Part shown: piece after piece, positions 10,543 through 36,536 of the stretch
How the letters are laid out: each line of letters begins with the position of its first letter
How positions within the stretch are numbered: position 1 is the stretch's first letter
DNA from: a virus
IMG/VR virus record: IMGVR_UViG_3300042558_005120
Span: 1-64,000 of that record
DNA length: 64,000 nt
Strand: one strand, 5' to 3'
The notes under the pieces: model-generated
Databases searched by the model: none
What the model was told of the DNA's origin: nothing
Seen by the model: the letters and a program-made list of their open reading frames with translations, nothing else
Translations under genes and position numbers: made by a program

Positions 10543-12420
10543 TTACATATCCTTAATTATTCGATAAATGCTCATTAGGTCATCAGTATTCTGAACGTCT
10601 TCATTTACTTTTCGCATAATCACATTTTTAATTGTAGGTTCGACTGTATCATATATATTCTCTACCATTTCGTAAAAATCAGTAGATGAGAAAAAAGGAA
10701 CTAAATCCACACAAGTCATTGCAATATCATCGTGACCGGTTTGTGATTCATAGCGACCTTGGGAATTTAGTCCAAATGCCGTTAGTTCGTCAACAGTTTT
10801 CTTTTCAGTAATAATAATTCTTTTTTGTTGAATTAAACTTCTTAGTTCTCTGGAATAAGATTCTTTATTATCCTTTTGTAGTTTAACACCTATCTTCATT
10901 GTGTCATTTGCAATACTGTGCTTTGTATGTAAAAATAACTCCGGATAGTAGTTTCTATTTTTTGACAGCTTTTCAACAATTATGTTACCTTTAAAGTTAA
11001 TCTCCAAAACTACCGAACAATTCTCATGGTGAAATATGCTGTAAACTAATATCTCTAATACTTTAGCAACTTCATCAACCGAAGTACTGTTTGACTGAAA
11101 TATACCAACCTGTCGAAGTCGGAAGAAACTGGATTCATCATTCCAATCCCTGGTTCCACGAATACCAACAAGAGATTGTGGCTCCATTTTAAAAATATTG
11201 ATAACTGAATAGTCGCGGCCAACACCATCACCTAAATCTAAAACAAAAACAATTTGGTCATTGACTGCATCTCTTCTCGTTGGGTCATAATCTGGGTGCC
11301 ATTTTAAATGTGTACCTAAATCTGGAAAATCTAAAAAGTCATCAATCTCGACCCACTTGTATGGCTTGCAAATTTTATTCAGAAGTTGCAATGTTTGACT
11401 TGAAAGCAATAACCTTGAAGAAGCTAAGAATTGATTTCCATATTCTTGGTTAAAAAGTTCTTCATTTCCTAAGTTAGCAATTTCTCTTTTTTTCCATTCT
11501 TCGTCTCTGCCAGGAACTTCCCACCAATCGACCCTAATAGCATTAAATGCGTTTGACTTAGTTAAAGCACCTTGGTAGATATTATAGAAAAGATTCATCC
11601 CATGGGGCGTGGACGAAATAATCATCCTAGATATCGTTGACGAAGAAAGTGTTGGATAAATTGAACGATAAAAAGGTTCCAAAAAGTTAGGATGGATGTG
11701 AGCAAACTCATCCGCATACAACAAGTGGATAGTAAAACCAATCGCTGCTGTTTTTGTTGTTGCCTGAGAATAAAGACGATTACCATTATCGAATTTCATA
11801 GTAGTTACAGCATTTGTAACGATACCTGGCTTCATAAAGAATGGCAAATTCTTTAACACGATTTTGATTTTATCTACAATCTCAGTAGTTGTTGCTAATT
11901 TATTTGCAACAACCATAGCATTTCTATCAAAGTGGAAACAAATATACCAAGCAATAAATATACTACTTGTTACAGTATTATGTGAAAGAATGCCATTTGT
12001 ATAAAAGCGATGGTTTGGATGGTTGACTGTCAAATCAAACATCGAATAATTGTTACTACTTTTTATTATTTTAATTACTCGCTCAGCGCCATCTTGTGTA
12101 TAGATATAATCACCTATTTCCAAATTGTCAATAAAAATTTGTTGTAATTTATCAGTAAAAATAATATGTTGGTCAGCAGCATATATTTTTTTACCAGTAT
12201 CTGTTTCAATCGTCCATTCTGTAAATGGCTGAGTTATATGGATATCACTAACGCCAACCCAACCCGTGTCCGACATTACTTGTATGTCTGTATTTATACC
12301 AACCGTATTGATAATTTTTTTAGATGAGTCGAATTGGTTTAATTGCAAATGGCGATACTCAAACCGTTCAATTAATTGAATAGTTTTTATAATCGCTATT
12401 TTAAGTATCTTTTTTATCAT
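10543..12420 (-). CDS. terL: Terminase large subunit, C-terminal part, fused to a 148-aa C-intein (intein 12420-11977)
   Basis: Hint motifs AADQH and FDLTV...FYTNGILSHN followed by Thr+1; then gp17 motifs LYADEFAHI, SSTPHGMN, WWEVPGRD, QEY, DLGDGVGRDYS, HDD. Confidence 0.92.
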   Translation of the reverse strand: MIKKILKIAIIKTIQLIERFEYRHLQLNQFDSSKKIINTVGINTDIQVMSDTGWVGVSDIHITQPFTEWTIETDTGKKIYAADQHIIFTDKLQQIFIDNLEIGDYIYTQDGAERVIKIIKSSNNYSMFDLTVNHPNHRFYTNGILSHNTVTSSIFIAWYICFHFDRNAMVVANKLATTTEIVDKIKIVLKNLPFFMKPGIVTNAVTTMKFDNGNRLYSQATTKTAAIGFTIHLLYADEFAHIHPNFLEPFYRSIYPTLSSSTISRMIISSTPHGMNLFYNIYQGALTKSNAFNAIRVDWWEVPGRDEEWKKREIANLGNEELFNQEYGNQFLASSRLLLSSQTLQLLNKICKPYKWVEIDDFLDFPDLGTHLKWHPDYDPTRRDAVNDQIVFVLDLGDGVGRDYSVINIFKMEPQSLVGIRGTRDWNDESSFFRLRQVGIFQSNSTSVDEVAKVLEILVYSIFHHENCSVVLEINFKGNIIVEKLSKNRNYYPELFLHTKHSIANDTMKIGVKLQKDNKESYSRELRSLIQQKRIIITEKKTVDELTAFGLNSQGRYESQTGHDDIAMTCVDLVPFFSSTDFYEMVENIYDTVEPTIKNVIMRKVNEDVQNTDDLMSIYRIIKDM

Positions 12421-13528
12421 ATATAAAGTTTATACATTTTTCTATTGTTTTTATTGGATTTGATTTATACTCTGATTCCCATATCACCATAACTAAAAAA
12501 CCTTCTTGTTCAATTAGAGATTTTTTATTTTTATCAGATTCCCATATATCTTTTGCTGTTGTGCCTATTACTTTATGTATGTATGCTGATTCATAAGTAT
12601 TTGGATTACAATGCCAATAGTCACCGTGGAATTCTATTATTTTGTTATTGATAACAAAATCATAAGAATGTGTTATTTTTTGACTTGGAAAATATCTAAA
12701 AAACTGCTTCCCGTTTAGTGCGCTGTAATACTTATTTTTGCATTTTAAATTATCTACTATTTTTTGAATAAATTCTAATTCTAAATCCGAATAATTATTT
12801 TTAGAGAATTTAACAAAATCTCCATTTTTGTACATATCATTTATTTTTTCGCCCCATTCTTTATTTCTTTTTTGCCAAATCTTTATTCCTTTTTCCTCCC
12901 CATATTTTTTGATACACTTATCAATCGTAAATGTTCTTTGTCTTTCTTTATATTTTTCTATTGCGGTTTCTATATCTTCATATTTATTTTTCCAATATTC
13001 AAAATTAGTTTCTGTTAAGCGATTAGAGAGTGCTTGTTTGGCGAATACGGAAACAGCTTTTTCTTTGTCTTCAATATTTGAATACCCTTTAAAACTTTTT
13101 GAAAATGGTGATAATGTTTTTCGATATTCTTCGGATGTTTTTGATTTATGGTTTGGATTATTCACTCCTTTAAATTTTTTACTCATCAAAGTTCGATACT
13201 TCTCATCCTTCATATGAATTCCTGAATTCTTGGACGTGCTTTTTTTGTCAGAAAGACAGGCGACTGCAGCATTTGGAAATTCTGAGTGATAATCTTTAAT
13301 AGTTTTATCTGTATGGTGATTTTTAATATGAGTTCCGTATATTCTTTTTGCTTTATAGTTGCACCATTTACAAGTAATATAATCAATTCCTTCTATTCCA
13401 TCGAGGCTGTTTGATTTTTTAATTAGTGCCTTTTGTTTTTTTAATTCTTGGGCTTTTTCTTTGCAAACGGTTGAACAATATTTTGTTCCTGTGCCTTTAA
13501 CTGCTGTTTCACAGATTAAACATTTCAT
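12401..13528 (-). CDS. Free-standing homing endonuclease (Vsr/DUF559-like PD-(D/E)xK) between the split terL halves
   Basis: YDFVINNKIIEFHGDYWHCNP...VIWE; N-terminal Zn-finger Cys pairs. Confidence 0.8.
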   Translation of the reverse strand: MKCLICETAVKGTGTKYCSTVCKEKAQELKKQKALIKKSNSLDGIEGIDYITCKWCNYKAKRIYGTHIKNHHTDKTIKDYHSEFPNAAVACLSDKKSTSKNSGIHMKDEKYRTLMSKKFKGVNNPNHKSKTSEEYRKTLSPFSKSFKGYSNIEDKEKAVSVFAKQALSNRLTETNFEYWKNKYEDIETAIEKYKERQRTFTIDKCIKKYGEEKGIKIWQKRNKEWGEKINDMYKNGDFVKFSKNNYSDLELEFIQKIVDNLKCKNKYYSALNGKQFFRYFPSQKITHSYDFVINNKIIEFHGDYWHCNPNTYESAYIHKVIGTTAKDIWESDKNKKSLIEQEGFLVMVIWESEYKSNPIKTIEKCINFIYDKKDT

Positions 13529-13548
13529 ATTTATACTATTTTTTATAG

Positions 13549-13557
13549 TATATATTT
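13549..13557 (-). promoter_or_regulatory. Late-type promoter variant AAATATATA upstream of the endonuclease
   Basis: Variant of the recurrent motif in the 55-nt gap. Confidence 0.45.
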
Positions 13558-13583
13558 AAAGATGAATCTTGCTTTTTGACAAA

Positions 13584-14078
13584 TCAATCCAGCCAATCAT
13601 AAATTTTCCAAAGACGCCATTTTATTTTTTCAGCAAATGTTAATTTGCGTTCCTTTTTCAGTATTATAAAATAAAGGTTTCCTAATGAAATTTCTTTAAC
13701 TTCTTGCTCCGGAAATTTCACCTTTATTTTAGTTGAATAAGAAGCACACTTCCCAATCTGGCGGCTTGCAACCATAACGTTGAAGCGATTATCTTGGAAA
13801 TCTCGTAACATTTTTTTCTGGTACCCTCTAAGTTTAATTCGAGAAATACCTTCGTCCGTCATTGAATAACAATAGTTCTCTCCAAAATAAACTACGTCAT
13901 CTGCGCATTTTGCAATTTCTTGTAGTTCCTCATCGGTATAATCGAAAACAATATCCGGTGCTCGGTAATCTATTTTACCGTCAGCAAAAGGAGAGTAATC
14001 AGCCTGTCCGCCTTGCTCTATTTTTGTAATTTCTTCATTGATCCTTTTGGTTGACCAAACCTTACCTCTACTCGACAT
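13584..14078 (-). CDS. terL: Terminase large subunit, N-terminal part (110 aa), fused to a 54-aa N-intein (Cys1 at 13748)
   Basis: KCADDVVYF...LRGYQ...ASRQIGK Walker A cut before its Thr, followed by CASYSTKIKV (intein block A). Confidence 0.9.
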   Translation of the reverse strand: MSSRGKVWSTKRINEEITKIEQGGQADYSPFADGKIDYRAPDIVFDYTDEELQEIAKCADDVVYFGENYCYSMTDEGISRIKLRGYQKKMLRDFQDNRFNVMVASRQIGKCASYSTKIKVKFPEQEVKEISLGNLYFIILKKERKLTFAEKIKWRLWKIYDWLD

Positions 14079-14727
14079 CTTCTACATCTTTTTTGATTGC
14101 GCCATCTGCTTTGTGTTCTGGGATTGCTTGGCGCAGTGTTTCAATTAGTTTTCGAGTTCCTCGGATTTGATTGCCAGTATTATCTTCAATTTCATAGTCA
14201 CCACTTTTCAGTTCCTGTGGACCTTCTGCTTTTTTGATTCGATAGTCTTCCTTTAAGGACTTGTAATTGTTTTCCATAATTACCATGAATTGCGCCATGT
14301 GTTTGACTATATCCATTTTAGCACGTTGTAATGAAGAAAGAACTTCAAATGCTCGAGGATGTACTCCACCATTATCAATCTCCTCAAGCAATTTGATAAT
14401 AGCATGCTCTGCGGTTTTCATTTGAAACAGCAAACTTGATACGGTTAGTTTATCAACTGTATTTTTTTCTCGGATATATGCAATTTCAGATATAATATCT
14501 CGGTCCAAATAGAATTCAGCAATTGCCGCAACAATTTTTCCCGCTTCATCATCTGCGACTTCTTTGACCGCCATGTAGTTTAAAAATCCTACGGTAGGTC
14601 GTTCGGGTAAAATGCTTTCAGCAAGTTTTAATGAGCTTGCTAGATTTTCATCACTGTTAATAAGTTTTTCCAATTCGTCCTTTTCATTGAGTACTTCGAC
14701 TCTTCTGGGATTTGGTTTTCTTGCCAT
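14068..14727 (-). CDS. Probable terminase small subunit (gp16-like)
   Basis: Directly upstream of terL; HPRAFEVLSSL motif typical of T4-like TerS. Confidence 0.65.
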   Translation of the reverse strand: MARKPNPRRVEVLNEKDELEKLINSDENLASSLKLAESILPERPTVGFLNYMAVKEVADDEAGKIVAAIAEFYLDRDIISEIAYIREKNTVDKLTVSSLLFQMKTAEHAIIKLLEEIDNGGVHPRAFEVLSSLQRAKMDIVKHMAQFMVIMENNYKSLKEDYRIKKAEGPQELKSGDYEIEDNTGNQIRGTRKLIETLRQAIPEHKADGAIKKDVEDVE

Positions 14728-14733
14728 ATTGTA

Positions 14734-16749
14734 TTATTTTGTCTGTCCAATCCAAGGAAGTTCTAATCTTGGAAGAGCGTTGTCTATGATTATAGAATAC
14801 TGCGCATCTTGGACAATGGTTTGATTTAAAATTATGATTTGTTTATTTAAGTCGTTTTCTGATCTAGAGAAAACTCGAATGTTTGTATAAGCTAAGCTGC
14901 TTGCAGGCAAACGATACTGATATCCACCTGTTGCGCTTCGATTGACATTTGTAGCAATCACCGCCTTTGAGTATATATTCTCTAAATCAGTTGTCTGTTC
15001 TGGTGTTGCTGATGACTCGTTCCATTTACGAATCCAAAGGTCTAACGAGATTTGTTGAAAGCAATTATTAACATTAAAGTAGTAAGCATACCAATTGTTC
15101 TCAACAATATTGTTCGGTAATATAAATAGGAGATTCTCAGTCTGACTAACAAAATTAAAATATCGGCTTGCATAAAGTGAAAGCTTCCAACCTGAATTAT
15201 CATCTGGGTTGAGACCATCCATCATTATAGTTTCGTAAGTTACTTCTACTTGATAACCGCTTGTTATAGACCCAGATGCCCAGTTTTGATAATAGGTATT
15301 TAAAAATTGAATAATCTCATTTCGGACTGCAATTGTAATAATAAAACCACCAACAATTGGCGTCTTTGAGACAAAATTGCCAAACACTGAAAGTCCATTA
15401 AAACGTGTAATCTTTAAAAGCGAACCCGGTTGATAGTTTCGGTTTGGAGTAATTGTAAAACTCAGTGGAGTTGTTGTTGTGCCTACAGTCCCGAGTACCA
15501 ATTGTCCTTTAACTGAATCTTTTGGCGTTTGGACTTTTGGGCCTAATTCTTTAAACCAAGCACAGACACCTAATTCATTTTCATTGCTTTCTGAAAACTC
15601 AACCTTTGCTCGATATTTAACAGCAATCTGATTTTCTAAAGGATTGAATATTGACCGCAGGTCATACTGGCTTTCGGATAAAATATTACTCCAATTCATA
15701 AGCCGAGATTCAGTAATTACTAAATTGTCATTTATTTCCAAACGAGTTGGGTCGTATTTTCGACTTCCAATTTTTGGATCATATTGCTCTGGCTTTGTAA
15801 TTTTTTCTTCTTCAACTGTAACTTCTTCATCGAAGCGCTCGATACTGTCCCATGAGATTCCGTCCAATTGTCCTCTGAGTTCCTGCGGTTCGTATCGGTT
15901 TGCTTTGGGGGCATATTTTTTTAATGCAACTTTCCAATATGCAGGTTGATACATAAAGTCTCTAAATAGATATGAGCTTTCAATTTCATAAATTCGATTT
16001 GTCAAAGGAAAGTAAATTATGTCTCTTTTCTGTGGTGCAATTCCAATCCCTAAAACCGATTCAAAATAATTCTTATCAATGTGAACTTCAAACGGCATTT
16101 CGAAATCCAAGCCAAACGGGTTGAAGTTTATTTTTGAATCTGGAAACTCATTATTTGGAACAATTACTTTTATCGTACACGGCTCATCCACATCGTATAA
16201 AGTCCACTCGTGTAAAACTACATCTTTTCCAACTGCCATTGGTACTGCTCTGGCATACATTGTATCATGGCCAAAGATTCGGTTGATAGATGCGCTTAGG
16301 TCTTTGTAAAGAACAACCGCTGGGTTTACTTGATAAGGTCGAAAGGTAAAATTCTCAAGTTTTGTTAGATTTGTTATCGAACCTTTTTCCGCAACGGTTA
16401 AGATTGGTCGGAAACCATAATAAGGGTCATCGGCATCTACGGATTGCTCAAACAATAATGTTATGTCATTGATTGTAATCGGCCCACCACCAATCAGCGT
16501 ATATCGGAAATCAACATAAAGATCTAAGTTTGGGTCTAAGTTACAAATTGCTGTTAAATTTTCAACAGTCAAATCCATCCACGAAGCACGGACCCGATTT
16601 GTTGTCCCCCATCTGAACTCGCGGCGAAGAACCCCAATACCTGAGATGTCCTCTTCCCATCCCGTCATTTTAGTTACCCATTTATACGGCTTTTGCTGAA
16701 CGATTTTTGCGTAATCTCCAATATTTGTTAGAACAGTTGTACAACTCAC
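14734..16749 (-). CDS. Neck/head-closure protein (gp14-like) with additional domains
   Basis: FGLDFEMPFEVHIDKNYF...PQKRDIIYFPLTNRIYEI resembles the gp14 core; preceded by the late motif. Confidence 0.55.
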   Translation of the reverse strand: MSCTTVLTNIGDYAKIVQQKPYKWVTKMTGWEEDISGIGVLRREFRWGTTNRVRASWMDLTVENLTAICNLDPNLDLYVDFRYTLIGGGPITINDITLLFEQSVDADDPYYGFRPILTVAEKGSITNLTKLENFTFRPYQVNPAVVLYKDLSASINRIFGHDTMYARAVPMAVGKDVVLHEWTLYDVDEPCTIKVIVPNNEFPDSKINFNPFGLDFEMPFEVHIDKNYFESVLGIGIAPQKRDIIYFPLTNRIYEIESSYLFRDFMYQPAYWKVALKKYAPKANRYEPQELRGQLDGISWDSIERFDEEVTVEEEKITKPEQYDPKIGSRKYDPTRLEINDNLVITESRLMNWSNILSESQYDLRSIFNPLENQIAVKYRAKVEFSESNENELGVCAWFKELGPKVQTPKDSVKGQLVLGTVGTTTTPLSFTITPNRNYQPGSLLKITRFNGLSVFGNFVSKTPIVGGFIITIAVRNEIIQFLNTYYQNWASGSITSGYQVEVTYETIMMDGLNPDDNSGWKLSLYASRYFNFVSQTENLLFILPNNIVENNWYAYYFNVNNCFQQISLDLWIRKWNESSATPEQTTDLENIYSKAVIATNVNRSATGGYQYRLPASSLAYTNIRVFSRSENDLNKQIIILNQTIVQDAQYSIIIDNALPRLELPWIGQTK

Positions 16750-16767
16750 TTAATAGTGCTTTTTATC

Positions 16768-16776
16768 TATATATCA
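16768..16776 (-). promoter_or_regulatory. Late-type promoter motif TGATATATA
   Basis: Upstream of the neck/terminase operon. Confidence 0.65.
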
Positions 16777-16782
16777 AAAAAT

Positions 16783-16815
16783 AAAAAAAGGGTATGAACA
16801 TAGTCCACACCCTTT
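16783..16815 (-). terminator. Probable terminator
   Basis: AAAGGGT...ACCCTTT stem with an A-run on the + strand. Confidence 0.5.
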
Positions 16816-16844
16816 AACAATCGCACTTGTTTTAAAATATTTTT

Positions 16845-17228
16845 TTATAATTGTTCGATTACTTTTAAATCGATTCCAGAATTGGCAACAGCATCTCGCA
16901 GTTTTTCTAGTTTTGCTTCAATTCTATCGGCACGTGAATCTATTTTTTTTCGTAGTTCTTGATTTATTGAATACTGATTTTCTGCATCATTTTGAATTAT
17001 GTCTCGTAACCTTTTTTCTATGACATGGATATAATCATTTAGGTAGACTTTTTCCTGTGTCAAAGTAGAACGAATGTCATCCATCGATCTGTAAACCGAG
17101 TCTAACTCCCTATGAAAAATTGTTGTGTTTATTTTTTTACTCAACCTATAGTACGCCACGGCGATTGATGCTATCAAAGCAATGGCACACAAAGTTGAAC
17201 AAACGGTAATAATGATTGTTGTAAGCAT
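16845..17228 (-). CDS. Membrane-anchored coiled-coil hypothetical protein
   Basis: N-terminal hydrophobic helix followed by a heptad-like region. Confidence 0.6.
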   Translation of the reverse strand: MLTTIIITVCSTLCAIALIASIAVAYYRLSKKINTTIFHRELDSVYRSMDDIRSTLTQEKVYLNDYIHVIEKRLRDIIQNDAENQYSINQELRKKIDSRADRIEAKLEKLRDAVANSGIDLKVIEQL

Positions 17229-17266
17229 AATGTTTTTTTTGTTTTTTTAAGTGCGATTGTATATCT

Positions 17267-17677
17267 TTATTCAATTAGAGATTTAAAATTTTCAAGTTCG
17301 TCCCAAACTTTATCGCCGAGTAAAGAAACCGCATCATCAAAATCTCGACGAGACCACTGATGGATTTCACACCATTTTTGAATAATCGAATCTTCGACAG
17401 GTTGGACTGCTTTTTTCTTTTCTTTCTCTTTTTTCGTTTTAACGTACATCCAACCAGGTGTTCGATTATATTGCCCGGCCAATAAAGATTGCCAAAAGGT
17501 AACAGCTTCGGATGGATTGATTTTTAAATGATTAAAATAAGCAGCTTGAACTGGATAGCGAATGCTGCACAAACGATTGACCATAAAAAAATGTTTACCT
17601 CGCTCATGTGGCGGTACCGACTTAAATTCATTCGGCTTGGAAATCATATTGTTTATAAACTCAAATAAGTCTGCCAT
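17267..17677 (-). CDS. Clamp loader small subunit (gp62-like)
   Basis: LFEFINNM...FFMVNRLCS...W pattern; size and proximity to gp44. Confidence 0.5.
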   Translation of the reverse strand: MADLFEFINNMISKPNEFKSVPPHERGKHFFMVNRLCSIRYPVQAAYFNHLKINPSEAVTFWQSLLAGQYNRTPGWMYVKTKKEKEKKKAVQPVEDSIIQKWCEIHQWSRRDFDDAVSLLGDKVWDELENFKSLIE

Positions 17678-17682
17678 ATTGT

Positions 17683-18783: not shown

Positions 18784-18808
18784 AATTATGAGATTTTTGT
18801 ACAGTATA

Positions 18809-18837
18809 AATATATGAAATTTTCTCGAGACTTGCAA
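18809..18837 (-). promoter_or_regulatory. Candidate early (host-sigma) promoter TTGCAA-N17-TATATT
   Basis: Parallels TTACAA-N17-TATATT at 21620-21648. Confidence 0.4.
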
Positions 18838-18854
18838 GGAAAACCCAATCTTTT

Positions 18855-19103
18855 TTAGTAATATCCAAAACTTTCGATTGCCCTTTTAATACTTCGTTCA
18901 AGCTCTTGGCGAAGAACAAAGATTTGATTTACTGTATTTAAGTTTCCTTTAAAGACTTGTTTTCTTTGCAGCTCATTTTGTTTGTTTACTGCATAGATAT
19001 AAATCCTTGCACCAATTTTAACAACATCGAATTTTTTCCTGGGAAGTATTGGGTATGTTGTTAATATGTAACTATCAATGTCGGAAACTCTTTCAAAAAT
19101 CAT
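18855..19103 (-). CDS. Hypothetical protein
   Basis: 82-aa ORF in operon context. Confidence 0.55.
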   Translation of the reverse strand: MIFERVSDIDSYILTTYPILPRKKFDVVKIGARIYIYAVNKQNELQRKQVFKGNLNTVNQIFVLRQELERSIKRAIESFGYY

Positions 19104-19330
19104 TCTACAACTTCAGGTTTTATATGGACACTGTATTCTCTATTTCTTAGATTTTTACCAAACCATTGACCTTTGGATGTTGCAGAAGAAAAGGATTGGT
19201 AGTCATCATAAGTAAAATTTGGATATGTATATTCGTGGCCATTATGAAAAGTCACTGTAATGTTTTCCGATATGTCATCCCAGTTTGCAGACTTGACCAA
19301 AGATGAATTTACTTCTAAATTGTATTGCAT
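19100..19330 (-). CDS. KTSC domain protein
   Basis: VNSSLVKSANWD...VTFHNG.EYTY...SKGQWF. Confidence 0.8.
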   Translation of the reverse strand: MQYNLEVNSSLVKSANWDDISENITVTFHNGHEYTYPNFTYDDYQSFSSATSKGQWFGKNLRNREYSVHIKPEVVE

Positions 19331-27768: not shown

Positions 27769-27806
27769 TTCTTGAAATATTTTTTTATGTTTTAATTTCT
27801 ATCTAT

Positions 27807-27816: not shown

Positions 27817-27845
27817 AAAGTTTTTTTCTCGAAAAATGGACATTG

Positions 27846-29405
27846 TTATTGTACATATAGTATTCCATTTGATGCGGAAAGTGTAAAATCATTATTATTT
27901 TTTGTTGTAGTGACATTGCTACTAACCTCAATTCGATTAAGTGCTTCACTAAACCCAACTATTGTACTGCCGAATGGGATTCCAATCCCGGTAACCCGTT
28001 GTCCAACTAATGGATAAGTTTCTAATAATGTGGTTACAGTTGGATTTACATTTGTTATTAGATTATTTATCGTGGACGAATCTATGTCCCCGGTAAATTT
28101 TGCTATATCACTTAAAACCAAATAATTAGATTCGTTGTTTGAATCTTCGATTTTCACTTCTAATTTTGTAATTGGCGATGGTGTAAACCCAGAACCACCA
28201 TCAACAATATTTGCTGAAAAAACAGAACCGCTGCTGATTGTTGCCTGAATTATCGGGGCAACAAATGTTGGTGGTATCGTTGGTGGTAATGGAAAAAGAT
28301 TAACTTCAATTAAATCTGTTGATGTATATCCGTATCCTTGATCCAAGACAACAATTTTATCTACCGAACCGAGTGCATCAATAATTGCTCTGACCCGAGA
28401 GTCACGGCCCGTTTCAGAAACTACTACCGACCGATGTCCTTCATTTGCTATTGGTGTTCCGTTTATATCAAAAAATGGTATTTTCCAGTCATAAGTTCCA
28501 ACGTTGTTGAGATTACGAGCAATCAGTGTCCATTCAGTTTCCCCGACAAGGCGATAGTAAAGATTAACCCTACGGATTGGGCCGGTGTTCCCCCATGAGA
28601 TTGGTAACTCTCCACTTGAAAAATATTTTTCATTTGGAACTGGAGAATTAAAAGTAAACCTTGGTTTATTATAATCTTCTGACGAGATATCAATTGTGTT
28701 GAAGCCGGCGATTCTTTTAGCATTACTAAATTCAGTTGTTCGATCTAATACCGGGAAGTAAGTTTCAACTTCAATATTGAATTTAAGTGTGGTTTTAGCA
28801 TCAGCCTGATAAGTAAACTCAAATGTTTTTTCAAGTCCATAGTCTTCGGAAAAGCCTCCCTGGCATGGAATCCTAAACCCTTTGTATGTAACAGAAAAAA
28901 CTTGATTTTTATAAAACGTTTCAACTAATGCCTGTTCAATCTTAAATGCATCTAAATAGGTATCCGTTTCGATTGTTACCTCAAACGCCATATTAATGGG
29001 AATCGAATTTAAGAAGGCACTAAATGTTTGTAGTTCACCATTAACTTCTTTAACGTAATTCCCTCTGACAAAACGATGTGTCATTTTCCCAGTGTCAATT
29101 GTTTTGGATGTTAATGTTACAATCCCTCTTGGTATTACATCATAGTTTCCATCTGCAAAATTACCTGTAAATTCACCACAGTCAAATTTTGGATGAATAC
29201 AGTCATTCCAATTTAAAAAGTAGTCTTGGAGGAATCTTTCGTCCCCGCCCATATTATAGAAAAATGGAACATAGACAGTATCAATACTGTTATCGCCTAA
29301 GATATTCTCGTAGAATATCTTGTCATTTAATAGATTAATGATTCCAACTATTACTGCTCGTGAGTGAACATCGTCGGTATTGTATTTGTGTAGAAACTCT
29401 CCCAT
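27846..29405 (-). CDS. Tail sheath stabilizer / tail completion protein (gp15-like) with a C-terminal beta-rich extension
   Basis: VPFFY...ERFL...IPRG...PINMAFEV...IEQALVETF; C-terminal Ig-like and GxGY repeats. Confidence 0.6.
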   Translation of the reverse strand: MGEFLHKYNTDDVHSRAVIVGIINLLNDKIFYENILGDNSIDTVYVPFFYNMGGDERFLQDYFLNWNDCIHPKFDCGEFTGNFADGNYDVIPRGIVTLTSKTIDTGKMTHRFVRGNYVKEVNGELQTFSAFLNSIPINMAFEVTIETDTYLDAFKIEQALVETFYKNQVFSVTYKGFRIPCQGGFSEDYGLEKTFEFTYQADAKTTLKFNIEVETYFPVLDRTTEFSNAKRIAGFNTIDISSEDYNKPRFTFNSPVPNEKYFSSGELPISWGNTGPIRRVNLYYRLVGETEWTLIARNLNNVGTYDWKIPFFDINGTPIANEGHRSVVVSETGRDSRVRAIIDALGSVDKIVVLDQGYGYTSTDLIEVNLFPLPPTIPPTFVAPIIQATISSGSVFSANIVDGGSGFTPSPITKLEVKIEDSNNESNYLVLSDIAKFTGDIDSSTINNLITNVNPTVTTLLETYPLVGQRVTGIGIPFGSTIVGFSEALNRIEVSSNVTTTKNNNDFTLSASNGILYVQ

Positions 29406-29409
29406 GGAT

Positions 29410-29418
29410 TATATATCA
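29410..29418 (-). promoter_or_regulatory. Late-type promoter motif TGATATATA, 4 nt upstream of the ATG
   Basis: Overlaps the gp46 stop codon; recurrent motif. Confidence 0.55.
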
Positions 29419-31092
29419 CTCAATCTTTTCAACATCTAAATTGGAAAACCCATTGTTCTTTTGAACAACCACACGATAATCAAATATCTCAGTCGGTAGA
29501 GGACTGTGGTTAATAACAAATATATTTAGTTTTAATTCTCGACAAGTTTTATGTAGGACATTTAAGATATGGTAGATGCCATTCATATCAATTGAAGAAA
29601 ATATCTCGTCCAAAAAGAAAAGGTTAATACCAGAGAACCTCATTTTCATAATTCGCATTAAAGCAATGAGCACAGCAAAGTCCATTTTTTTTCTTTCGCC
29701 AGTAGATAATTGCTCAACTGCAATTTCATATCCTAAATGTTTAATGTCAACTGCAAATTCTTCATTAAATGTAACTCGGTATTCAAGTCCTAAAGCTGTT
29801 AGTACCTTTTTGATTTCTGAATTTAGAAGTGGCAAGATTTTTTTAATTGCAATAAGTTTAATTCCTCTGTCGCCAAATATTTCATCAACCAATCCGTAAA
29901 AGTTAATTCTTTTTGTTTCATTATCTTTCTTTTGGATTGCATCGTTTTTCCCACTTGTTGAGTTTTCAATAATATTTCTCAGTGCAACAGTTTGCTCATC
30001 GTTTCCATTTGATTCCGACAGTTGTTTCAATTCTTTATTTGAATTGCTAATTTGAAAGTTTGCTGCTGCAGTTTTGCCTTCAATTTCTTTTTTACTTTCT
30101 AATAGTTTTTTTCTTTTTTCACCTAATTCATTTAATTGTGTTGTTATATCAGCTAACTCTTCTTTAACCTCTTCGTTTTTCTCTAAATAGTTTTGTAACA
30201 ACTCTTTGTGATAGTCGGTATCTAAATTGGTTTCACAAGTAGGACATTGACCTTTTTGTAACAATTTTATTTTTCCGTCTCTTGCTTTTGTTTCATAATT
30301 AATTGAAGTTTGGTTTTGATTTAAAGCGTCAATTGCATCTTTCAATTCAGATTCAGCCCCGGACAGTTTTTCCAAATGTGCTTCTGCATTTTGTATATAT
30401 AATTCCAACTTTTCGATTTTTTCAATCAAGTGTTCTTTTTTCTCTTCTGCAGACTCGTTTAACTTTGTATTTAACAATTCCAATTCCAATGTTGAATTAT
30501 CAATAGTTCTAATCAGAACATTGATTTCAGTTGTAAGTTCATCAACTGCATCTTTGATTTCCCTAATTTTATTTTTAACTTTTGACCGCATATGAGTGAT
30601 AAGTTCAAGACCAAAGATTCGGTCAATGATGTTTCTTTTATCACTTGGACCCATATCCATAAAACTTTTAAAGTCGTTAATGGATAAGGAAATCATATTG
30701 TTAAAAATATAATAAGGAATGCCAAGTATCTCATCTTCCAAAAATGACTGAACATTTTTCTTCCCAGCTTGTTGATACTCAACGCCATTGACAGACAATT
30801 TGAAAAAGTTTGGAGCAACACCACGTTCAATTGTAATCTGCTCTAATCCATTTTTCTCTAACTCTATTTTAACATGGGCGTGCTTATTAAAACGGTTTGC
30901 AATATGTGCTAACTTTTTATTATCAAGTCTGCCGTATAAACCAAATTTGATTGCATCTGATAAACTACTTTTACCAGCACCATTATCACCAAGAACAATA
31001 TAAAAATTACCTTGTTGTTCATCAAATTCAATGGTCTGCCATCTGTTTCCGTATGATGCAAAGTTTTTAAAACTTACTGAACGTATTTTCAT
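29416..31092 (-). CDS. Recombination endonuclease ATPase subunit (gp46 / SbcC / Rad50)
   Basis: GDNGAGKS, CPTC zinc hook, LSTGE, FLDE. Confidence 0.92.
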   Translation of the reverse strand: MKIRSVSFKNFASYGNRWQTIEFDEQQGNFYIVLGDNGAGKSSLSDAIKFGLYGRLDNKKLAHIANRFNKHAHVKIELEKNGLEQITIERGVAPNFFKLSVNGVEYQQAGKKNVQSFLEDEILGIPYYIFNNMISLSINDFKSFMDMGPSDKRNIIDRIFGLELITHMRSKVKNKIREIKDAVDELTTEINVLIRTIDNSTLELELLNTKLNESAEEKKEHLIEKIEKLELYIQNAEAHLEKLSGAESELKDAIDALNQNQTSINYETKARDGKIKLLQKGQCPTCETNLDTDYHKELLQNYLEKNEEVKEELADITTQLNELGEKRKKLLESKKEIEGKTAAANFQISNSNKELKQLSESNGNDEQTVALRNIIENSTSGKNDAIQKKDNETKRINFYGLVDEIFGDRGIKLIAIKKILPLLNSEIKKVLTALGLEYRVTFNEEFAVDIKHLGYEIAVEQLSTGERKKMDFAVLIALMRIMKMRFSGINLFFLDEIFSSIDMNGIYHILNVLHKTCRELKLNIFVINHSPLPTEIFDYRVVVQKNNGFSNLDVEKIE

Positions 31093-31397
31093 TATTTTAT
31101 AAAATTAATATGGTCTAATGATTTAATCATTTTGTGAAACTCTTTAATAATAGCCCCACCTTTTCTTGGATTTCCTTTGTCCGTTAATAACGGAGTCAAC
31201 CCCATACATTCTGGATTATTAGTATTGCCCCAAGCCACATAATGTGTTTTATTTATCTTCACAGGTTCTTTCAGTAAAATTAAATATCGACCATCTTCGT
31301 GTTTATAACTCATTAGTTTTAAATAATCAGTAATACATTTTATGTATTTTTCACCAGTCAACCAATCAGGTTCGTAAGTAGGTTTTGTAAAGTACAT
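31092..31397 (-). CDS. Hypothetical protein between gp47 and gp46
   Basis: 101-aa ORF, translationally coupled. Confidence 0.5.
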   Translation of the reverse strand: MYFTKPTYEPDWLTGEKYIKCITDYLKLMSYKHEDGRYLILLKEPVKINKTHYVAWGNTNNPECMGLTPLLTDKGNPRKGGAIIKEFHKMIKSLDHINFIK

Positions 31398-31407
31398 AAT
31401 AATAAAT

Positions 31408-32526
31408 TTAGTTAATTATCATTTCATTATTTTTTTCCATATCTCGAAGTGTCTCGTGATAGATACCAGTACTTGTTTTTATCAAACGTTCTTTAATACT
31501 AGATGTATATGCTAATTCATTAACATAAGTTTCAATTAATTTAACAATCGAAATTGAGTCAGGATTTTCAATATCCCCTTCTATATCGTCCTCAACCTTT
31601 TCACCTTCTTCTTCGGTAATAATAACGTGATTGATTTTTCGATACCCAGACAGTTTATCCATAAAGACTGCAAATGGAAATTTCAGTGACCATTGCGGTG
31701 TCATATGAATATCCACAAAGTTATTGGCAAATAGACGTTGGATTGTTTCAATGTTTTGCTCGAGCAACCATTCAAGGCGATACCGCAAAAATTTAGGTGA
31801 CCGAGTATTCTCCCAAGAAGTTTCTTCTAATGTTTCCAAATCAACTCGCCAAACAGATTTAATATTGCCTGCATCCGAACGGGTCAGCTGATAAGGCGAA
31901 CCAACCATTCTAATGTTTTTATATTTTTGTGTATAGTGAATATGGCCGGAGTAGACTTGTGTATAATTGTTGAATACTTCTGCTTCATTTCCTTCTTCAA
32001 CTTTAACATTTCTACTGAATGAAACACCCCGGACATCGGTGTGGCAAAAAAGTAAATCAGCTTTGTTTTTTGGATTTTGGACAAATTCTCTAAGTTCATC
32101 TTCCTCTTCAACCCACGGCAAAAACATCCCTGTAGATTTTCCAAAATTAACAAGCTGCGGGTTTTCAAAAACTGTTACATTTTTTGTATGTTTAAAAAGC
32201 TTCATTGAGTTTATCTCATTTGTATGCTTCATAAAAATATCGTGGTTGCCGATAATAATATAAACCGGCAAAATATCCGCAAGTGCTTCGATAATCTCTT
32301 GGCCTTTATTCATAATATACAAATTAATAGACTGTCGAGAATCAAATGTATCGCCGCAGTGAATTAGAATATCACCGGGTTTGTGTTCGGATTTAATTAG
32401 TGGAATTAAAAAATTGTGAAAATAGTCATCAATTATTTCCATCCATTCTTTAGAATTATTTCTGACACCAAAATGTGTATCTGAAATAATCCAAGCTCTG
32501 GTTGCGGGAACATTTAAAGTAGTCAT
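31408..32526 (-). CDS. Recombination nuclease subunit (gp47 / SbcD / Mre11)
   Basis: SDTHFG, GDTFD, GNHD, SGHIH, GSPYQLT. Confidence 0.92.
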   Translation of the reverse strand: MTTLNVPATRAWIISDTHFGVRNNSKEWMEIIDDYFHNFLIPLIKSEHKPGDILIHCGDTFDSRQSINLYIMNKGQEIIEALADILPVYIIIGNHDIFMKHTNEINSMKLFKHTKNVTVFENPQLVNFGKSTGMFLPWVEEEDELREFVQNPKNKADLLFCHTDVRGVSFSRNVKVEEGNEAEVFNNYTQVYSGHIHYTQKYKNIRMVGSPYQLTRSDAGNIKSVWRVDLETLEETSWENTRSPKFLRYRLEWLLEQNIETIQRLFANNFVDIHMTPQWSLKFPFAVFMDKLSGYRKINHVIITEEEGEKVEDDIEGDIENPDSISIVKLIETYVNELAYTSSIKERLIKTSTGIYHETLRDMEKNNEMIIN

Positions 32527-32945
32527 TAAAAAAGTCGTTTAATATTTTTCTTTGCGAATATTTTATACTTGCCATCCAACTCACGGATAATTCGATCTTG
32601 GTATGCAGAACCTAATTCATTAAACAGTGTCTCATACGGCGCAGTCATAAATTCAGCAATTGCTGTAAACCTTTCAACCGCAGACATATCGTCAGACTTT
32701 AATCGGTCATCAAAGTAATAATAGATTTCTGCTAAAACTGATTTGCTGTTTTTTCGTGTTTTCTCAAAGTCCCCAGAATACGGTGACTCTTTGTAGATTT
32801 TGTATAAATCTTCTTGAAGCTTTGTTTCAATATAGTCTTCGTATAAATCCCCAGTTGCTTCTTGAACTACTTTAATTTCACCAAATAGTTCATAGTCAAT
32901 ATCCCCACGGTTAAAACTATTGTTAAATATTTTATCTTCTTTCAT
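32526..32945 (-). CDS. Hypothetical protein, possibly a gp33-like late transcription co-activator
   Basis: C-terminal helical pattern loosely like gp33; weak. Confidence 0.3.
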   Translation of the reverse strand: MKEDKIFNNSFNRGDIDYELFGEIKVVQEATGDLYEDYIETKLQEDLYKIYKESPYSGDFEKTRKNSKSVLAEIYYYFDDRLKSDDMSAVERFTAIAEFMTAPYETLFNELGSAYQDRIIRELDGKYKIFAKKNIKRLF

Positions 32946-32950
32946 ACTTG

Positions 32951-34072
32951 TTATTCGTTAATAATTTGTGAATCGGGGTCTTCGGTTATGGACATATAAT
33001 CATAATCAATTAAAAACTTTTTTCGAGAATTTTTGTATCCGTCATCTCGATTCGCTAACAGTTTTAACATATACTCACGGTTGGCGTGCATAATTTCATC
33101 TTGGATGATACCAAACATAGCATCCACCGTATGACCTAAACCCGAAGACTCGGAAATATTAGTAATATTCAAATCAGTACTGCCGAAACCACTTCTGTTG
33201 ACTTGAGTTGCTGTGATAATTGCCCATTCATTTCGCATTGCCATGGCACGTAGGTCTTCAGCGATTTGTTTAATTTTCATATACATATTTTCGCTGTTTG
33301 GATTTCTCCAGTTTTTCAAGATATTAATGTAATCCAGGACAATTACTTTGAATTTAATACCTTTCATCTCTTCCATTTTCCTTAGATACATTTCCAAATC
33401 GGGAACACCTGCAGATGAAGTCGGAAATTCTTTTACAAATAATTTACCAGGCATCTGTAAATTGTTATAACCGATGCCTGCTAATTTTTTCTTAACCGCA
33501 ACTTTGTCTCTGGCAAAGTCACCATATTCTCGCATACTGATTCCAAGCATATTTGCACCCAAACGTTTGATTACTTTACGGTCTCGCATCTCTAAAGAGA
33601 TTACTGCAGTATTATAACCAAGTTTTACAGAATTAGATGCCACGTTTGCTAACCAGATAGAATTGTGACTTAATATACCGTTTGTATAGAACCTACGATT
33701 CTCATCTGAAAGTTGTAAATCATACATATTCTCGTATGTGCCAGTTTGGTTGATTGAATAAATCATCTCTGGTCCACTATCAGTGAGTATGTAATCACCT
33801 ATTTCTAGTTCATTGATAAATGTTTCAGAAAAAGCATTCAAGCCAGAAGAACATTTATACACAATATGAGTGTCAGCAGCACGTAAATTGAAAGATTCTG
33901 TTTTAATCTCCCATACTTCGTATTCTACTGTTTTGCCTATTGCTTTAATATCAACCCACCCGGTATCTGTTAAAACTTCAAATTCTTCTGTTCTATCTCC
34001 AAAAGTGAATGTTTCTACAAATTTTTTATACGGTCTTTCTTCTTCTGTTTTTTGAATAAAATCTTTTTGCAT
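32951..34072 (-). CDS. Replicative helicase (gp41 / DnaB-like), C-terminal part, fused to a 137-aa C-intein (34072-33662)
   Basis: AADTH, MYDLQL...FYTNGILSHN|SIWLAN; then ISLEM, KEFPT, LDYINI, TATQVNRSG, SES motifs. Confidence 0.92.
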   Translation of the reverse strand: MQKDFIQKTEEERPYKKFVETFTFGDRTEEFEVLTDTGWVDIKAIGKTVEYEVWEIKTESFNLRAADTHIVYKCSSGLNAFSETFINELEIGDYILTDSGPEMIYSINQTGTYENMYDLQLSDENRRFYTNGILSHNSIWLANVASNSVKLGYNTAVISLEMRDRKVIKRLGANMLGISMREYGDFARDKVAVKKKLAGIGYNNLQMPGKLFVKEFPTSSAGVPDLEMYLRKMEEMKGIKFKVIVLDYINILKNWRNPNSENMYMKIKQIAEDLRAMAMRNEWAIITATQVNRSGFGSTDLNITNISESSGLGHTVDAMFGIIQDEIMHANREYMLKLLANRDDGYKNSRKKFLIDYDYMSITEDPDSQIINE

Positions 34073-34126
34073 ATTTTTTATTTTAATCAATACAATTTGC
34101 TGATACTTTAATTTTCTCGGAATTTT

Positions 34127-34642
34127 TTACCAGTTTGAATTAGTTGAATTTGTTTTTATGTGTTTATCATAACTAATAATTATTTCCTCTAGATCTTTTT
34201 TAAGTGATTCCATAAGTTCAATCCAATTTTTTTTAAATAAACAAGATTTTGATGTGCCTGGATATTCTTCCTGGGGTTCTAATATTAGAAAGCTGCCATT
34301 ACAATCACTGGATGAATATTTTACATTGTCAACAATTATTTTGTATTTAAAATCTTTCATAAGGATTTTTATTGTATATGAATACCAAAAGGTAAGACCG
34401 TTATTAGAAATTTCTTTTATAGTACCTTTTATTATAATAATACCGTTTTCCTTATCATCATTTTGAATAACTTCTTTAGATGATTTCCATTTTTCGGCAA
34501 TAAAAAATTTTGTATCTGAATAAATCTCATCTTTTGTTTTTTCTACAGAATCAATTTTCTCCCATGTAAAGTTTTTCTGAGAATACGAATAAAAAGATGA
34601 TAACATCATTAGTGCAATCATTAGATACTTAATAGTTTTCAT
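34127..34642 (-). CDS. Secreted protein (DUF4468-like), passenger gene inside the split helicase locus
   Basis: Signal peptide MKTIKYLMIALMMLSSFYSYSQ; KDEIY...VIQNDDKENGIIIIKG...KDFKYK. Confidence 0.6.
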   Translation of the reverse strand: MKTIKYLMIALMMLSSFYSYSQKNFTWEKIDSVEKTKDEIYSDTKFFIAEKWKSSKEVIQNDDKENGIIIIKGTIKEISNNGLTFWYSYTIKILMKDFKYKIIVDNVKYSSSDCNGSFLILEPQEEYPGTSKSCLFKKNWIELMESLKKDLEEIIISYDKHIKTNSTNSNW

Positions 34643-34680
34643 TTAAGTTATTTTTAGTTTGTTTATAGAATAATTATAAT

Positions 34681-34708
34681 TTATATGAAAAAATAATTAA
34701 TTAGTTTT
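34681..34708 (-). promoter_or_regulatory. Bipartite promoter AAAACT-N15-CATATAA upstream of the passenger gene and helicase C-half
   Basis: Exact motif and spacing. Confidence 0.7.
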
Positions 34709-35785
34709 ATTAATAAAATTAACACAATCGGAAATAACTTTCTCTGGATTATTTCGATAATCATTTTCCCATACAACTAATACTTGGTATCCACATTTTT
34801 CTATTAAATGTATCTTTTCAGTGTGAGCATCCCAAATTTCCTTTGCGGTTTTTTGTATCATTTTGTGGAAATACGTTGATTCATAAGTAGAAGGATTACA
34901 ATGCCAATAATCACCATTGAACTCAATAATTTTTTTGTCAATTACAAAGTCGTATGCAAAACACTTTTGTACTTCTGGAAAAAATCGAAAATATTGTTTT
35001 TGCCCGTTAAGTGCACAGTAATAAGTAGTGGAAGGCTCTAATTGGTCAACTATAGATTTAATTAATTCTAATTCAACAGAAGAGTATATGGTTTTACAAA
35101 TTTTTGTGAACTCACCGTTTTTGTATTTTTCTTCAATCTTTTTGCTCCATTTTATATGTCTTTCTTTCCATACCTCAGGGCCTAAATCTGAACCATATTT
35201 GTCAATACATTTTTCTAAAGTAAACGTTCTTTGTCTTTCCTTTTGCATTTCTTTAGCATCTTTAATTGTATATCCTTTGTTTAACCAATATTCCAATTCT
35301 AAAGGTGTTCTGCCTTTATATAATTCAGGATTATTTCGTATTTTATCTAAAAATACGCCAACCATTGAATTTGTTTGCTTCTTTTGTTGTGCTAAAGCTT
35401 CTTCTTTAGAATATCCTTTGTTTTCCCAATATTCTATTGTATTAAAATGCTGTCCAGGGTTTTCCTGTTTAGATTTACTTATGTTCTTTCCTCTTTTATT
35501 ATAAGAGCTGTTAATCTTATTAACAGCTTGCTCATAAGTTAATCCGAACTTTTCCATCTGCCACTGTGGGTTTGTTGTTAATTTAGCGGTCGCTGTTTTG
35601 TTTTTTAATTCATTGACTTTAGTAACCGCTTCATTATACGTTAAACCAAATTTTTGTATCTGATAATCTACAGAATACGGATTAGATTTTTTCCCCTGTA
35701 TCTCTTTAATTTTAATCAATGCTTCCTCTTCTGATAATCCAAACTTTGTCATTTGATAACTGACGTCTTTCCAACTTTTTCTCAT
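34697..35785 (-). CDS. Free-standing homing endonuclease (Vsr/DUF559-like) between the split helicase halves
   Basis: YDFVIDKKIIEFNGDYWHCNP...VVWE; N-terminal helical repeats (YQxxKFGL, EYWxNKGY); paralog of 12401-13528. Confidence 0.8.
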   Translation of the reverse strand: MRKSWKDVSYQMTKFGLSEEEALIKIKEIQGKKSNPYSVDYQIQKFGLTYNEAVTKVNELKNKTATAKLTTNPQWQMEKFGLTYEQAVNKINSSYNKRGKNISKSKQENPGQHFNTIEYWENKGYSKEEALAQQKKQTNSMVGVFLDKIRNNPELYKGRTPLELEYWLNKGYTIKDAKEMQKERQRTFTLEKCIDKYGSDLGPEVWKERHIKWSKKIEEKYKNGEFTKICKTIYSSVELELIKSIVDQLEPSTTYYCALNGQKQYFRFFPEVQKCFAYDFVIDKKIIEFNGDYWHCNPSTYESTYFHKMIQKTAKEIWDAHTEKIHLIEKCGYQVLVVWENDYRNNPEKVISDCVNFINKTN

Positions 35786-35808
35786 AGTTTGTAATGAATA
35801 TTTTAAAT

Positions 35809-35817
35809 TATATATTC
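35809..35817 (-). promoter_or_regulatory. Late-type promoter motif GAATATATA upstream of the endonuclease
   Basis: Recurrent motif. Confidence 0.6.
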
Positions 35818-35843
35818 ATTGGAGAGATGAAAATTTATGCAAA

Positions 35844-36536
35844 TTAATATGGGATAAATCGTTTATGGAATTCACCAATTTCAATTTCTTCAACAACTCC
35901 TGTTTTTTTGTTTCGGACAGCAATTTTGGCATCAGATGTGGTGCATTTACCAATTTTCATTTCACCGATAAAACAAAAAAGAGCTTTGCTGTACCATCCA
36001 CCGCCTAAGATTAAATCGAGATAAGGATATCCCGTAGAGAAAGTATCTGATGTTGGTTGCTCGTGGCTGTCGGGATTAAAGAAATCCAAACCTTCGTCAA
36101 ATCCAAATTGAATATTATTCCGGTCAGTGATAATCGACTTTGCAGTTTGGACAACATCTTTAATGTTCTCGGCATTGATTTTTGTATTTTTCAGATAGGC
36201 TATCAAATCCATTACTGAAAGATCCAAATTTTTAAATTCAATCCAAGATTGTGCAGTCTCAGAAATCCAGGTTGTGTCGAATTCAGAAAGACGAGTTTCA
36301 AAAATCATTTCAATTTTGGTCGAAGAAAGGTCATCCCCCAATTCTTGCATTTTTGAAATCTCAACACATTGTGCTGATGTAGGTACTTGAGAGTATTTTT
36401 GAATAAACTCAACAGATATTTCATAAAGTTTTCGAATATCTGGAGAATCAAAAAACCTGGGTTTCACAATATCCAACAGCTCTTTGTTGGCCATCAGATA
36501 GTGATAAAATATTTTTTCGAGGTGTGGTGCTGTCAT
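35844..36536 (-). CDS. Replicative helicase (gp41), N-terminal part, fused to a 33-aa N-intein (Cys1 at 35945)
   Basis: FSTGYPYLDLILGGG...IGEMKIGK|CTTSDAKIAVRN; probable start MTAPH. Confidence 0.88.
   Translation of the reverse strand: MTAPHLEKIFYHYLMANKELLDIVKPRFFDSPDIRKLYEISVEFIQKYSQVPTSAQCVEISKMQELGDDLSSTKIEMIFETRLSEFDTTWISETAQSWIEFKNLDLSVMDLIAYLKNTKINAENIKDVVQTAKSIITDRNNIQFGFDEGLDFFNPDSHEQPTSDTFSTGYPYLDLILGGGWYSKALFCFIGEMKIGKCTTSDAKIAVRNKKTGVVEEIEIGEFHKRFIPY

Follow-up and report, generated by a model that had tools for sequence, protein, structure and literature searches.

The DNA examined here is a stretch of 64,000 nucleotides (nt), henceforth the window, from the IMG/VR virus record IMGVR_UViG_3300042558_005120, a T4-like phage fragment of 109 kb with an estimated completeness of 38%. 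Every gene between 10 and 38 kb of the window is on the minus strand, and this region carries two "fractured genes," those for the terminase TerL and the gp41 helicase, each rejoined via a related split intein (Table 1). In TerL and gp41 alike the insertion point is the Lys / Thr-Ser boundary of the Walker A motif (GK↓[ST]; arrows mark splice points). Both inteins are atypically split, with a short N-terminal fragment (IntN) holding block A alone and a long C-terminal fragment (IntC) holding blocks B, F, and G, and at each locus the two halves are adjacent and on one strand, separated by a free-standing gene for a putatively Vsr-like homing endonuclease. The source record has exactly two members of this intein family. 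The TerL pair has an additional helix on either side of the split; each of these helices, which the gp41 pair lacks, is one arm of a helical hairpin that was inserted ancestrally in a large clade of TerL P-loop inteins.

At the TerL locus the junctions read VASRQIGK↓C...HN↓TVTSS. Intein-free TerL alleles of 587-588 amino acids (aa) from the same 90% cluster read SRQIGKTVTSS, the exact predicted spliced product, which confirms the splice boundaries. A preliminary description of this DNA, made from the sequence, had placed the TerL boundary differently; with the IntN (stop codon at 13584-13586) measuring 54 aa, the N-extein becomes 110 aa long. The gp41 junctions read GEMKIGK↓C...HN↓SIWLAN, and the restored Walker A motif, GEMKIGK-S, was deduced from the intein boundaries alone. 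The gp41 N-extein frame is open as far back as TTG 36551 (N-half open reading frame [ORF] 35844-36551). For the gp41 IntC, the most likely start is ATG 34072 rather than the TTG 34090 given previously, which would make a fragment of 143 aa, because a 70%-identical relative retains that Met and not the TTG. Trans-splicing, as predicted from these junctions, must restore RQIGKT in TerL and KIGKS in gp41. Two features expected of an intein are in place: a nucleophilic Cys directly follows IGK at both loci, and the C-terminal His-Asn is followed by a +1 nucleophile (GILSHN↓T in TerL, GILSHN↓S in gp41). The TxxH position of block B reads AADQH or AADTH, with the His kept and the Thr replaced, and A80, D81, and H83 are invariant or nearly so across relatives. 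The Pfam family Intein_splicing matches both window IntCs below its cutoff, and phmmer finds distant similarity (about 24% identity) to VidaL (E value 2.9e-5) and CatC (1.1e-4).

Table 1. Coordinates of the two fractured genes, their intein parts, and other features discussed in the text (window positions unless another record is named).
Feature	Position	Strand	Basis
TerL N-extein, 110 aa, C-terminal end VASRQIGK (Walker A up to Lys)	13749-14078	-	ORF, translation, extein/intein boundary, intein-free alleles
TerL IntN, 54 aa, Cys1 first; core of about 33 aa (beta-hairpin and helix), then tail helix	13587-13748	-	Homologous IntNs
TerL IntN tail helix KLTFAEKIKWRLWKIYDWLD, 20 aa; first arm of hairpin	13587-13646	-	Motif position, conservation, homologue models
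Leader of TerL-locus endonuclease gene; hairpin with TATAAATA pairing the start codon	13529-13583	-	Folding
TerL-locus endonuclease gene, free-standing, 375 aa	12401-13528	-	ORF, sequence comparison
TerL IntC, 148 aa, end GILSHN, then Thr+1	11977-12420	-	Motifs, homology
TerL IntC head extension, 33 aa; second arm: head helix plus linker RHLQLNQFDSS	12322-12420	-	Homologues, models
TerL IntC head helix MIKKILKIAIIKTIQLIERFEY, about 22 aa	12355-12420	-	Motif position
TerL C-extein, 477 aa plus stop; Terminase_6N and nuclease parts	10543-11976	-	ORF, domain matches
gp41/DnaB-like N-extein, end GEMKIGK; probable start ATG 36536	35946-36536	-	ORF
gp41 IntN, 33 aa (CTTSDAKIAVRNKKTGVVEEIEIGEFHKRFIPY), without tail helix	35847-35945	-	ORF, boundary comparison
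Leader of gp41-locus endonuclease gene; hairpin sequestering the start codon	35786-35843	-	Folding
gp41-locus endonuclease gene, free-standing, putatively Vsr-like, 362 aa; repeated N-terminal FGL(S/T)xE(E/Q)A modules	34697-35785	-	ORF, sequence comparison
DUF4468 protein (phrog_4002), signal-peptide-like N terminus; passenger gene within the gp41 intein gap, beside the endonuclease gene	34127-34642	-	Family match
gp41 IntC, 137 aa from ATG 34072, end GILSHN, then Ser+1	33662-34072	-	Motifs, relative
gp41 helicase C-extein (DnaB_C)	32951-33661	-	ORF, domain match
UvsX recombinase; third split intein, canonical split	36856-38513	-	ORFs, domain matches
UvsX IntN, about 95 aa	At end of 37605-38513	-	ORF
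UvsX IntC, 38 aa	At start of 36856-37566	-	ORF
IMGVR_UViG_3300035698_010466, locus L113: IntC	2998-3342		
IMGVR_UViG_3300035698_010466, locus L116: IntN (ORF end)	1477-1815		
Same locus (L116): endonuclease	1859-2989		
Same locus (L116): IntC	2998-3345		

The TerL and gp41 C-inteins are homologous far beyond chance (40% identity over 109 aa; E value 2e-26), as the preliminary description had proposed from motifs shared by the two. These lie on the minus strand where they had been reported, namely SDTGWV and TDTGWV at 12256-12273 and 33953-33970, AADQH and AADTH at 12166-12180 and 33866-33880, LEIGDYI at 12103-12123 and 33788-33808, and RFYTNGILSHN at 11977-12009 and 33662-33694; the placement of both inteins after the I-G-K of Walker A, at equivalent sites, likewise holds. 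The similarity of the pairs does not extend to the same degree to the N-inteins, whose cores share only about 6 of 33 residues (about 20%) in an ungapped comparison. Within the identical 11-mer RFYTNGILSHN, 21 of the 33 coding bases are the same at the two loci, pointing to old paralogy and not to a recent DNA copy. The nearest relatives of the two window inteins are orthologues in other phages (54% and 57% identity), according to a poorly resolved tree of IntC cores (142 rows, 114 columns), which we use for this statement alone and not for a single origin of the hairpin. On sequence grounds, then, the TerL and gp41 inteins are old paralogues with no recent copying within the genome.

That only the TerL pair carries the helices had also been noted before, and the ends of the fragments bear it out. 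The gp41 IntN stops where the core of the TerL IntN stops, the latter continuing for another 20 C-terminal residues, and the TerL IntC has about 20 more N-terminal residues than its gp41 counterpart ahead of the (K/R)K(F/I)(I/V) core (33 versus about 14 residues before the shared KKF(V/I)). The tail and head sequences first quoted for the TerL pair were found on the minus strand at 13587-13643 and 12355-12420. CatC lacks a counterpart of the head extension, its alignment beginning at residue 43 of the TerL IntC.

An exhaustive search with the TerL IntC gave 783 clusters at an E value of ≤1e-3, the top 150 representatives of which were classified. Among these, the head helix was seen on TerL exteins only (55 TerL proteins) plus 9 fragments too short for an extein, in 49 split and 15 contiguous forms, the automatic helix label being wrong for a few rows (e.g., P0028, P0048, and P0076). 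The consensus of the head segment is MKKiLKyIILfLIQLIEKyEYRnLsLDEnDISKKI. Relatives without arms reside in TerL, gp41, gp46, and Clp-like ATPases. IMG/VR yielded 80 loci with a head helix, 62 of them split with an identifiable IntN and 8 contiguous. The tail arm is present in all but one of the 62 split loci (IntN of 46-62 aa), the split falling in the hairpin region, and the gap between IntN and IntC is mostly 900-1170 nt, the size of an endonuclease gene, and sometimes 28-221 nt. Homologues of the TerL N-terminal half in the protein database show the same picture: the 17 complete IntNs all have the tail consensus RKLTFxEKxKWxLWKxYDxL or a recognizable variant, and most end within a few residues past the helix, a further homologue (P0178) being truncated ahead of the tail. 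Two homologues, P0188 and P0190, have helix-type IntNs in which the first residue is not Cys but Ser (GK↓SFLSQ...) or Thr (GK↓TLGAQTLIKIF...).

In the contiguous forms (e.g., P0049 and L005) a short loop joins the tail and head helices. The hairpin of P0049 reads ...KERKLTLTEKVKRQIYRYYHRYKKYYLLKVIQFIEKIEYRH..., with the arms KERKLTLTEKVKRQIYRYYHRY-KK-YYLLKVIQFIEKIEYRH, and it sits in the intein after the first beta-hairpin and helix. Hydrophobic stripes are conserved in both arms (34 pairs), and arm subfamilies covary with phylogeny, so that mutual information between the arms would not count as independent support. Against an 81%-identical relative, the ratio of nonsynonymous to synonymous substitution rates (dN/dS) of the tail is 0.18, similar to that of the IntN core and indicative of purifying selection; the head gives 0.60, over few sites and with an unusually low dS of 0.23.

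AlphaFold2 models were obtained for two homologues, P0049 and P0002. The contiguous TerL precursor P0049, modeled with a 76-row alignment, has a mean predicted local distance difference test score (pLDDT) of 89, and its core helix (residues 157-168) is followed by a tail helix (173-188), a KK turn, and a head helix (191-204) at pLDDT values of 91-95. P0002 (P0151) is a natural 204-aa ORF found on three metagenome contigs of 2.6-5 kb, with no relatives in IMG/VR. It runs from a helix-type IntC (...GILSHN) straight into a helix-type IntN (CVGFDTII...KLTAIEWIKFFIWKLYS), as SHN↓C with no extein between; this ORF is either an intein that has been circularly permuted or the central part of a TerL in three pieces. 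Because its arms lie at opposite ends of the chain, P0002 mimics the trans topology. Its model (predicted template modeling score, 0.83) is one compact HINT domain, with a head helix at residues 2-20 and a tail helix at 187-203 (pLDDT 80-91). The underlying alignment had IntC rows only and no depth over the IntN part, as MAFFT placed IntN fragments on IntC columns and these were discarded. The model matches 58 solved intein/Hint chains at Z ≥ 8, headed by VidaL (6vgv; Z 11.6, root mean square deviation [rmsd] 2.5 Å, 110 aligned residues) and Cat (6dsl; Z 11.0, rmsd 2.5 Å, 112 aligned residues), both of which cover the P0002 core only, residues 23-148. The TerL-specific terminal segments are thus modeled as helical with confidence, and they probably pair.

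From these observations, we think it reasonably likely that the arms are the halves of an old hairpin cut by a selfish endonuclease gene, which probably re-pair in trans, any discrimination between inteins being incidental. The starting point would have been a mini-intein in the TerL P-loop that already had the helical hairpin. In keeping with the gene-breaking model of Dassa et al. (2009, PMC2677866), a free-standing, Vsr-like endonuclease gene would have entered the loop of this hairpin, and each intein fragment would thereby have retained one arm. After translation, the arms would most likely re-pair through their conserved hydrophobic faces, so that the short IntN could dock on the IntC over an additional surface ahead of closure of the HINT fold. 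Any discrimination against the gp41 halves would be a by-product, the divergence of the cores probably already limiting cross-splicing.

Several points weigh against this reading. Contact between the two helices is deduced from the two-residue turn and the confidence values, and the models are those of homologues. Both arms are net basic, which leaves only hydrophobic pairing, and the partner could just as well be the HINT core. In addition, the low dS of the head may reflect nucleotide-level constraint or co-conversion beside the endonuclease gene and not protein function.

The arms could, alternatively, be a structural leftover on the HINT core, a remnant linker or stabilizing mini-domain that has no part in fragment association and lies at the fragment ends merely because the endonuclease gene happened to insert there. 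The hairpin is older than the split and functions in cis forms, and its site is a general hot spot for insertions, contiguous relatives having from 40 to 369 aa inserted there. Moreover, known atypical TerL inteins splice without arms (IntN/IntC lengths of 25/104 aa in AceL, 37/115 aa in GOS, and 30/104 aa in Cat). A passive remnant would, however, sit uneasily with the strong conservation of the arms, their amphipathic periodicity, the location of the split in the hairpin region in 61 of 62 loci, and the confident placement of both terminal helices in the permuted-ORF model (P0002), and we regard this explanation as unlikely, though still deserving of weight. At the same hairpin/endonuclease loop, the contiguous TerL inteins P0081, P0131, and P0148 have low-complexity-looking inserts of 280-370 aa, which may be decayed or out-of-frame endonuclease remnants.

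The endonuclease of the TerL locus has a Cys-rich N terminus and a putatively Vsr-like nuclease C-terminal half. It belongs to phrog_22677, a family of unknown function, and matches Pfam PF18741 (REase_MTES_1575) below the cutoff. The only endonuclease matches among PDB sequences are Vsr endonucleases, at a weak E value of 0.15 over the DF..G.FWH...VWE region, and a profile of five endonucleases gave no meaningful match against PDB sequences. The TerL- and gp41-locus endonucleases are 54% identical over the C-terminal 199 aa. Both leaders fold with the AUG paired, with modest statistical support (z scores of -2.1 for TerL, at a minimum free energy of -7.9 kcal/mol, and -2.4 for gp41). In the TerL-locus leader hairpin, the late-promoter motif TATAAATA is located in the stem; this motif has 10 matches versus 8.6 expected and is uninformative on expression timing.

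Conservation of the arm DNA might conceivably stem from the endonuclease itself, through a homing site, a co-conversion tract, or regulatory overlap. The last 20 nt of the TerL-locus endonuclease gene overlap the start of the IntC out of frame (12401-12420), and many split relatives show a recognizable ...(I/T)L(Y/F)M(K/I)K junction. When window positions 10546-14078 are compared with L003, dS is 0.23 in the head, 0.75 in the IntC core, and 1.2-1.6 on the IntN side, the C-extein being saturated. The arms are nevertheless conserved as protein across clusters of <50% identity and in contiguous forms without an endonuclease gene, and the tail has a normal dS with a low dN, making an origin in the endonuclease very improbable. 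The dS drop toward the endonuclease gene is seen on the IntC side only and would fit one-sided co-conversion in homing, although few sites are involved. In another locus, L045 (approximately 3263-3929), one open frame contains both the endonuclease C terminus (...VIWEKEYNENPTETIKNVYNFY) and the IntC head (MINILKNIILNL...), and the two may be fused or translationally coupled.

The preliminary description had taken the helices for a possible docking zipper ensuring cognate pairing, on the premise that both split inteins may coexist in one cell. Coexistence is indeed possible, and re-pairing in trans is made plausible by the conserved hairpin and the models; a specificity module is not supported. 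According to that proposal, the helices evolved or were maintained for cognate pairing and prevent TerL/helicase chimeras. It accords with the presence of helices on only one of the two paralogous pairs in the window genome, and the same combination of a helix-type TerL intein and a gp41-type paralogue is seen in one further record, G006. Published cross-reactivity, too, is mostly among atypically split inteins, the IntNs of GOS-TerL and AceL-TerL being interchangeable (PMC7090010, PMC11766414). On the other hand, the same hairpin occurs in contiguous inteins, which need no docking, and it is a clade-wide TerL feature spanning dozens of 50%-identity clusters. Nine of 10 large records with a helix-type TerL intein (100-363 kb) are without a second family member, one of the nine being 96% complete, a comparison limited by the completeness of these records (18-96%). 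Two other contigs with co-resident paralogues lack helices. One, IMGVR_UViG_3300037067_001089, has gp41 and gp46 members. The other, IMGVR_UViG_3300035698_010466, has two atypically split inteins, in a ClpB-like AAA+ ATPase and a gp44/RFC-like clamp loader, both at Walker A. These are more alike than the window pair (IntCs 54% identical, IntNs about 45% by eye) and neither has arms, so that this contig is a sharper case for cross-splicing than the window, where the IntN cores are already so divergent. As the arms do not track co-residence, a specificity purpose is not supported, and we consider it quite unlikely to be the reason for their existence. We therefore continue to favor the old hairpin cut by the endonuclease gene.

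Much of this arrangement is already known, specifically the fractured-gene layout, the intein type of AceL-TerL, GOS-TerL, Cat, and VidaL, and the classic P-loop site. Fractured genes were described by Dassa, London, Stoddard, Schueler-Furman, and Pietrokovski (2009, PMC2677866), among them a gp17-like terminase locus and gp41-1 to gp41-9. They likewise come from phages and have two halves on the same strand, a split intein, and, separating the halves, a free-standing endonuclease gene, which is Vsr-like (or GIY-YIG) in that work and is preceded by a hairpin that often contains a TATAAATA-like element. The terminase intein described there has a 122-aa IntC and is "fractured at an unusual point," and one gp41 locus lacks the endonuclease, like that of L007 (see below). 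The gp41 inteins of that work are canonically split (IntN of 88-105 aa) at other gp41 sites, whereas the split here is atypical and in Walker A. In the parts of the paper that were read, there is no description of helical end arms or co-resident paralogous inteins.

AceL-TerL, GOS-TerL, the consensus intein Cat (PDB 6DSL), and VidaL (PDB 6VGV) share with the window TerL intein the short IntN, long IntC, and TerL host. Compared with the lengths of AceL, GOS, and Cat given above, its 54/148 aa include an extra approximately 20 and 30 residues, which are the hairpin arms. The nucleophiles also differ, Cys1/Thr+1 and Cys1/Ser+1 in the window as opposed to Cys/Cys or Ser/Cys in the AceL/GOS/Cat/VidaL group. 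In Walker A, the "classic" P-loop intein site separates the invariant Lys from the Thr (Kelley et al. 2016, PMC5050341; Novikova et al. 2016, PMC4760082). Those inteins share with ours the GK↓T/S point and the preference for P-loop ATPases and TerL, although the mycobacteriophage TerL inteins are contiguous and the word "split" is absent from the main text (PMC5050341). The window intein family occurs in gp46/Rad50-like, ClpX/ClpB-like, and gp44-like P-loops as well. Assisted docking by the arms would be analogous to the situation in the split NrdA of Aeromonas phage Aeh1, where tails derived from the insertion of the mobE endonuclease act as interaction domains (Crona et al. 2011, PMC3045599). 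There, too, an essential phage gene has been broken up by a free-standing endonuclease gene, with C- and N-terminal interaction tails at the break; unlike here, no intein or splicing is involved, and the tails came with the insertion, while the window arms pre-existed as an intramolecular hairpin. No description of helical arms on such inteins was found in the literature searched, the coverage of which was incomplete. What differs from the known systems is the 54/148-aa fragment size due to the arms, the atypical split in the gp41 Walker A, and the co-residence of the paralogues.

A third split intein, in UvsX, is close to the gp41 locus; it has no endonuclease gene and, by its split site, is unrelated to the TerL and gp41 inteins. 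A close relative of the window phage, L007 (IMGVR_UViG_3300031951_000268, 1653-7143), has the same intein split in gp41 with a gap of about 55-70 nt and neither the endonuclease nor the DUF4468 gene. Its UvsX is intein-free (FTNHTYASIGSY), and its PolB has, at YGDTD↓S, both a split intein and an endonuclease; in the window PolB that site is intact (YGDTDSVYITF; 38528-39715). The presence or absence of inteins is therefore polymorphic at three genes between the two. The window PolB-type DNA polymerase is a 395-aa C-terminal piece at 38528-39715 (Pfam DNA_pol_B positions 129-412), and the 243-aa ORF directly upstream (39727-40458) is unrelated and without a family match; the PolB gene is possibly in pieces, as in some T4-related phages.

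Inteins that are atypically split and have a short IntN are valued tools for labeling and semisynthesis, their weaknesses being modest affinity and cross-reactivity (PMC11766414, PMC7090010). A natural clade with one hairpin arm per fragment could supply a ready-made affinity or orthogonality handle. It is a more doubtful proposition that the arms already are a natural, portable heterodimerizing clasp that raises affinity and is orthogonal to arm-less relatives at the same GK↓[ST] site. If so, swapping or grafting arms would reprogram which halves splice, and the co-resident P-loop split inteins of jumbo phages would constitute a naturally orthogonal set. For the phages themselves, the helices alone are an unlikely answer to mis-joining. 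One intein family has colonized the Walker A loop of many ATPases, including TerL, gp41, gp46, a gp44-like clamp loader, and Clp-like proteins, and since a single genome can have several of its members, the way in which mis-joining is prevented or tolerated is a real question that can be tested.

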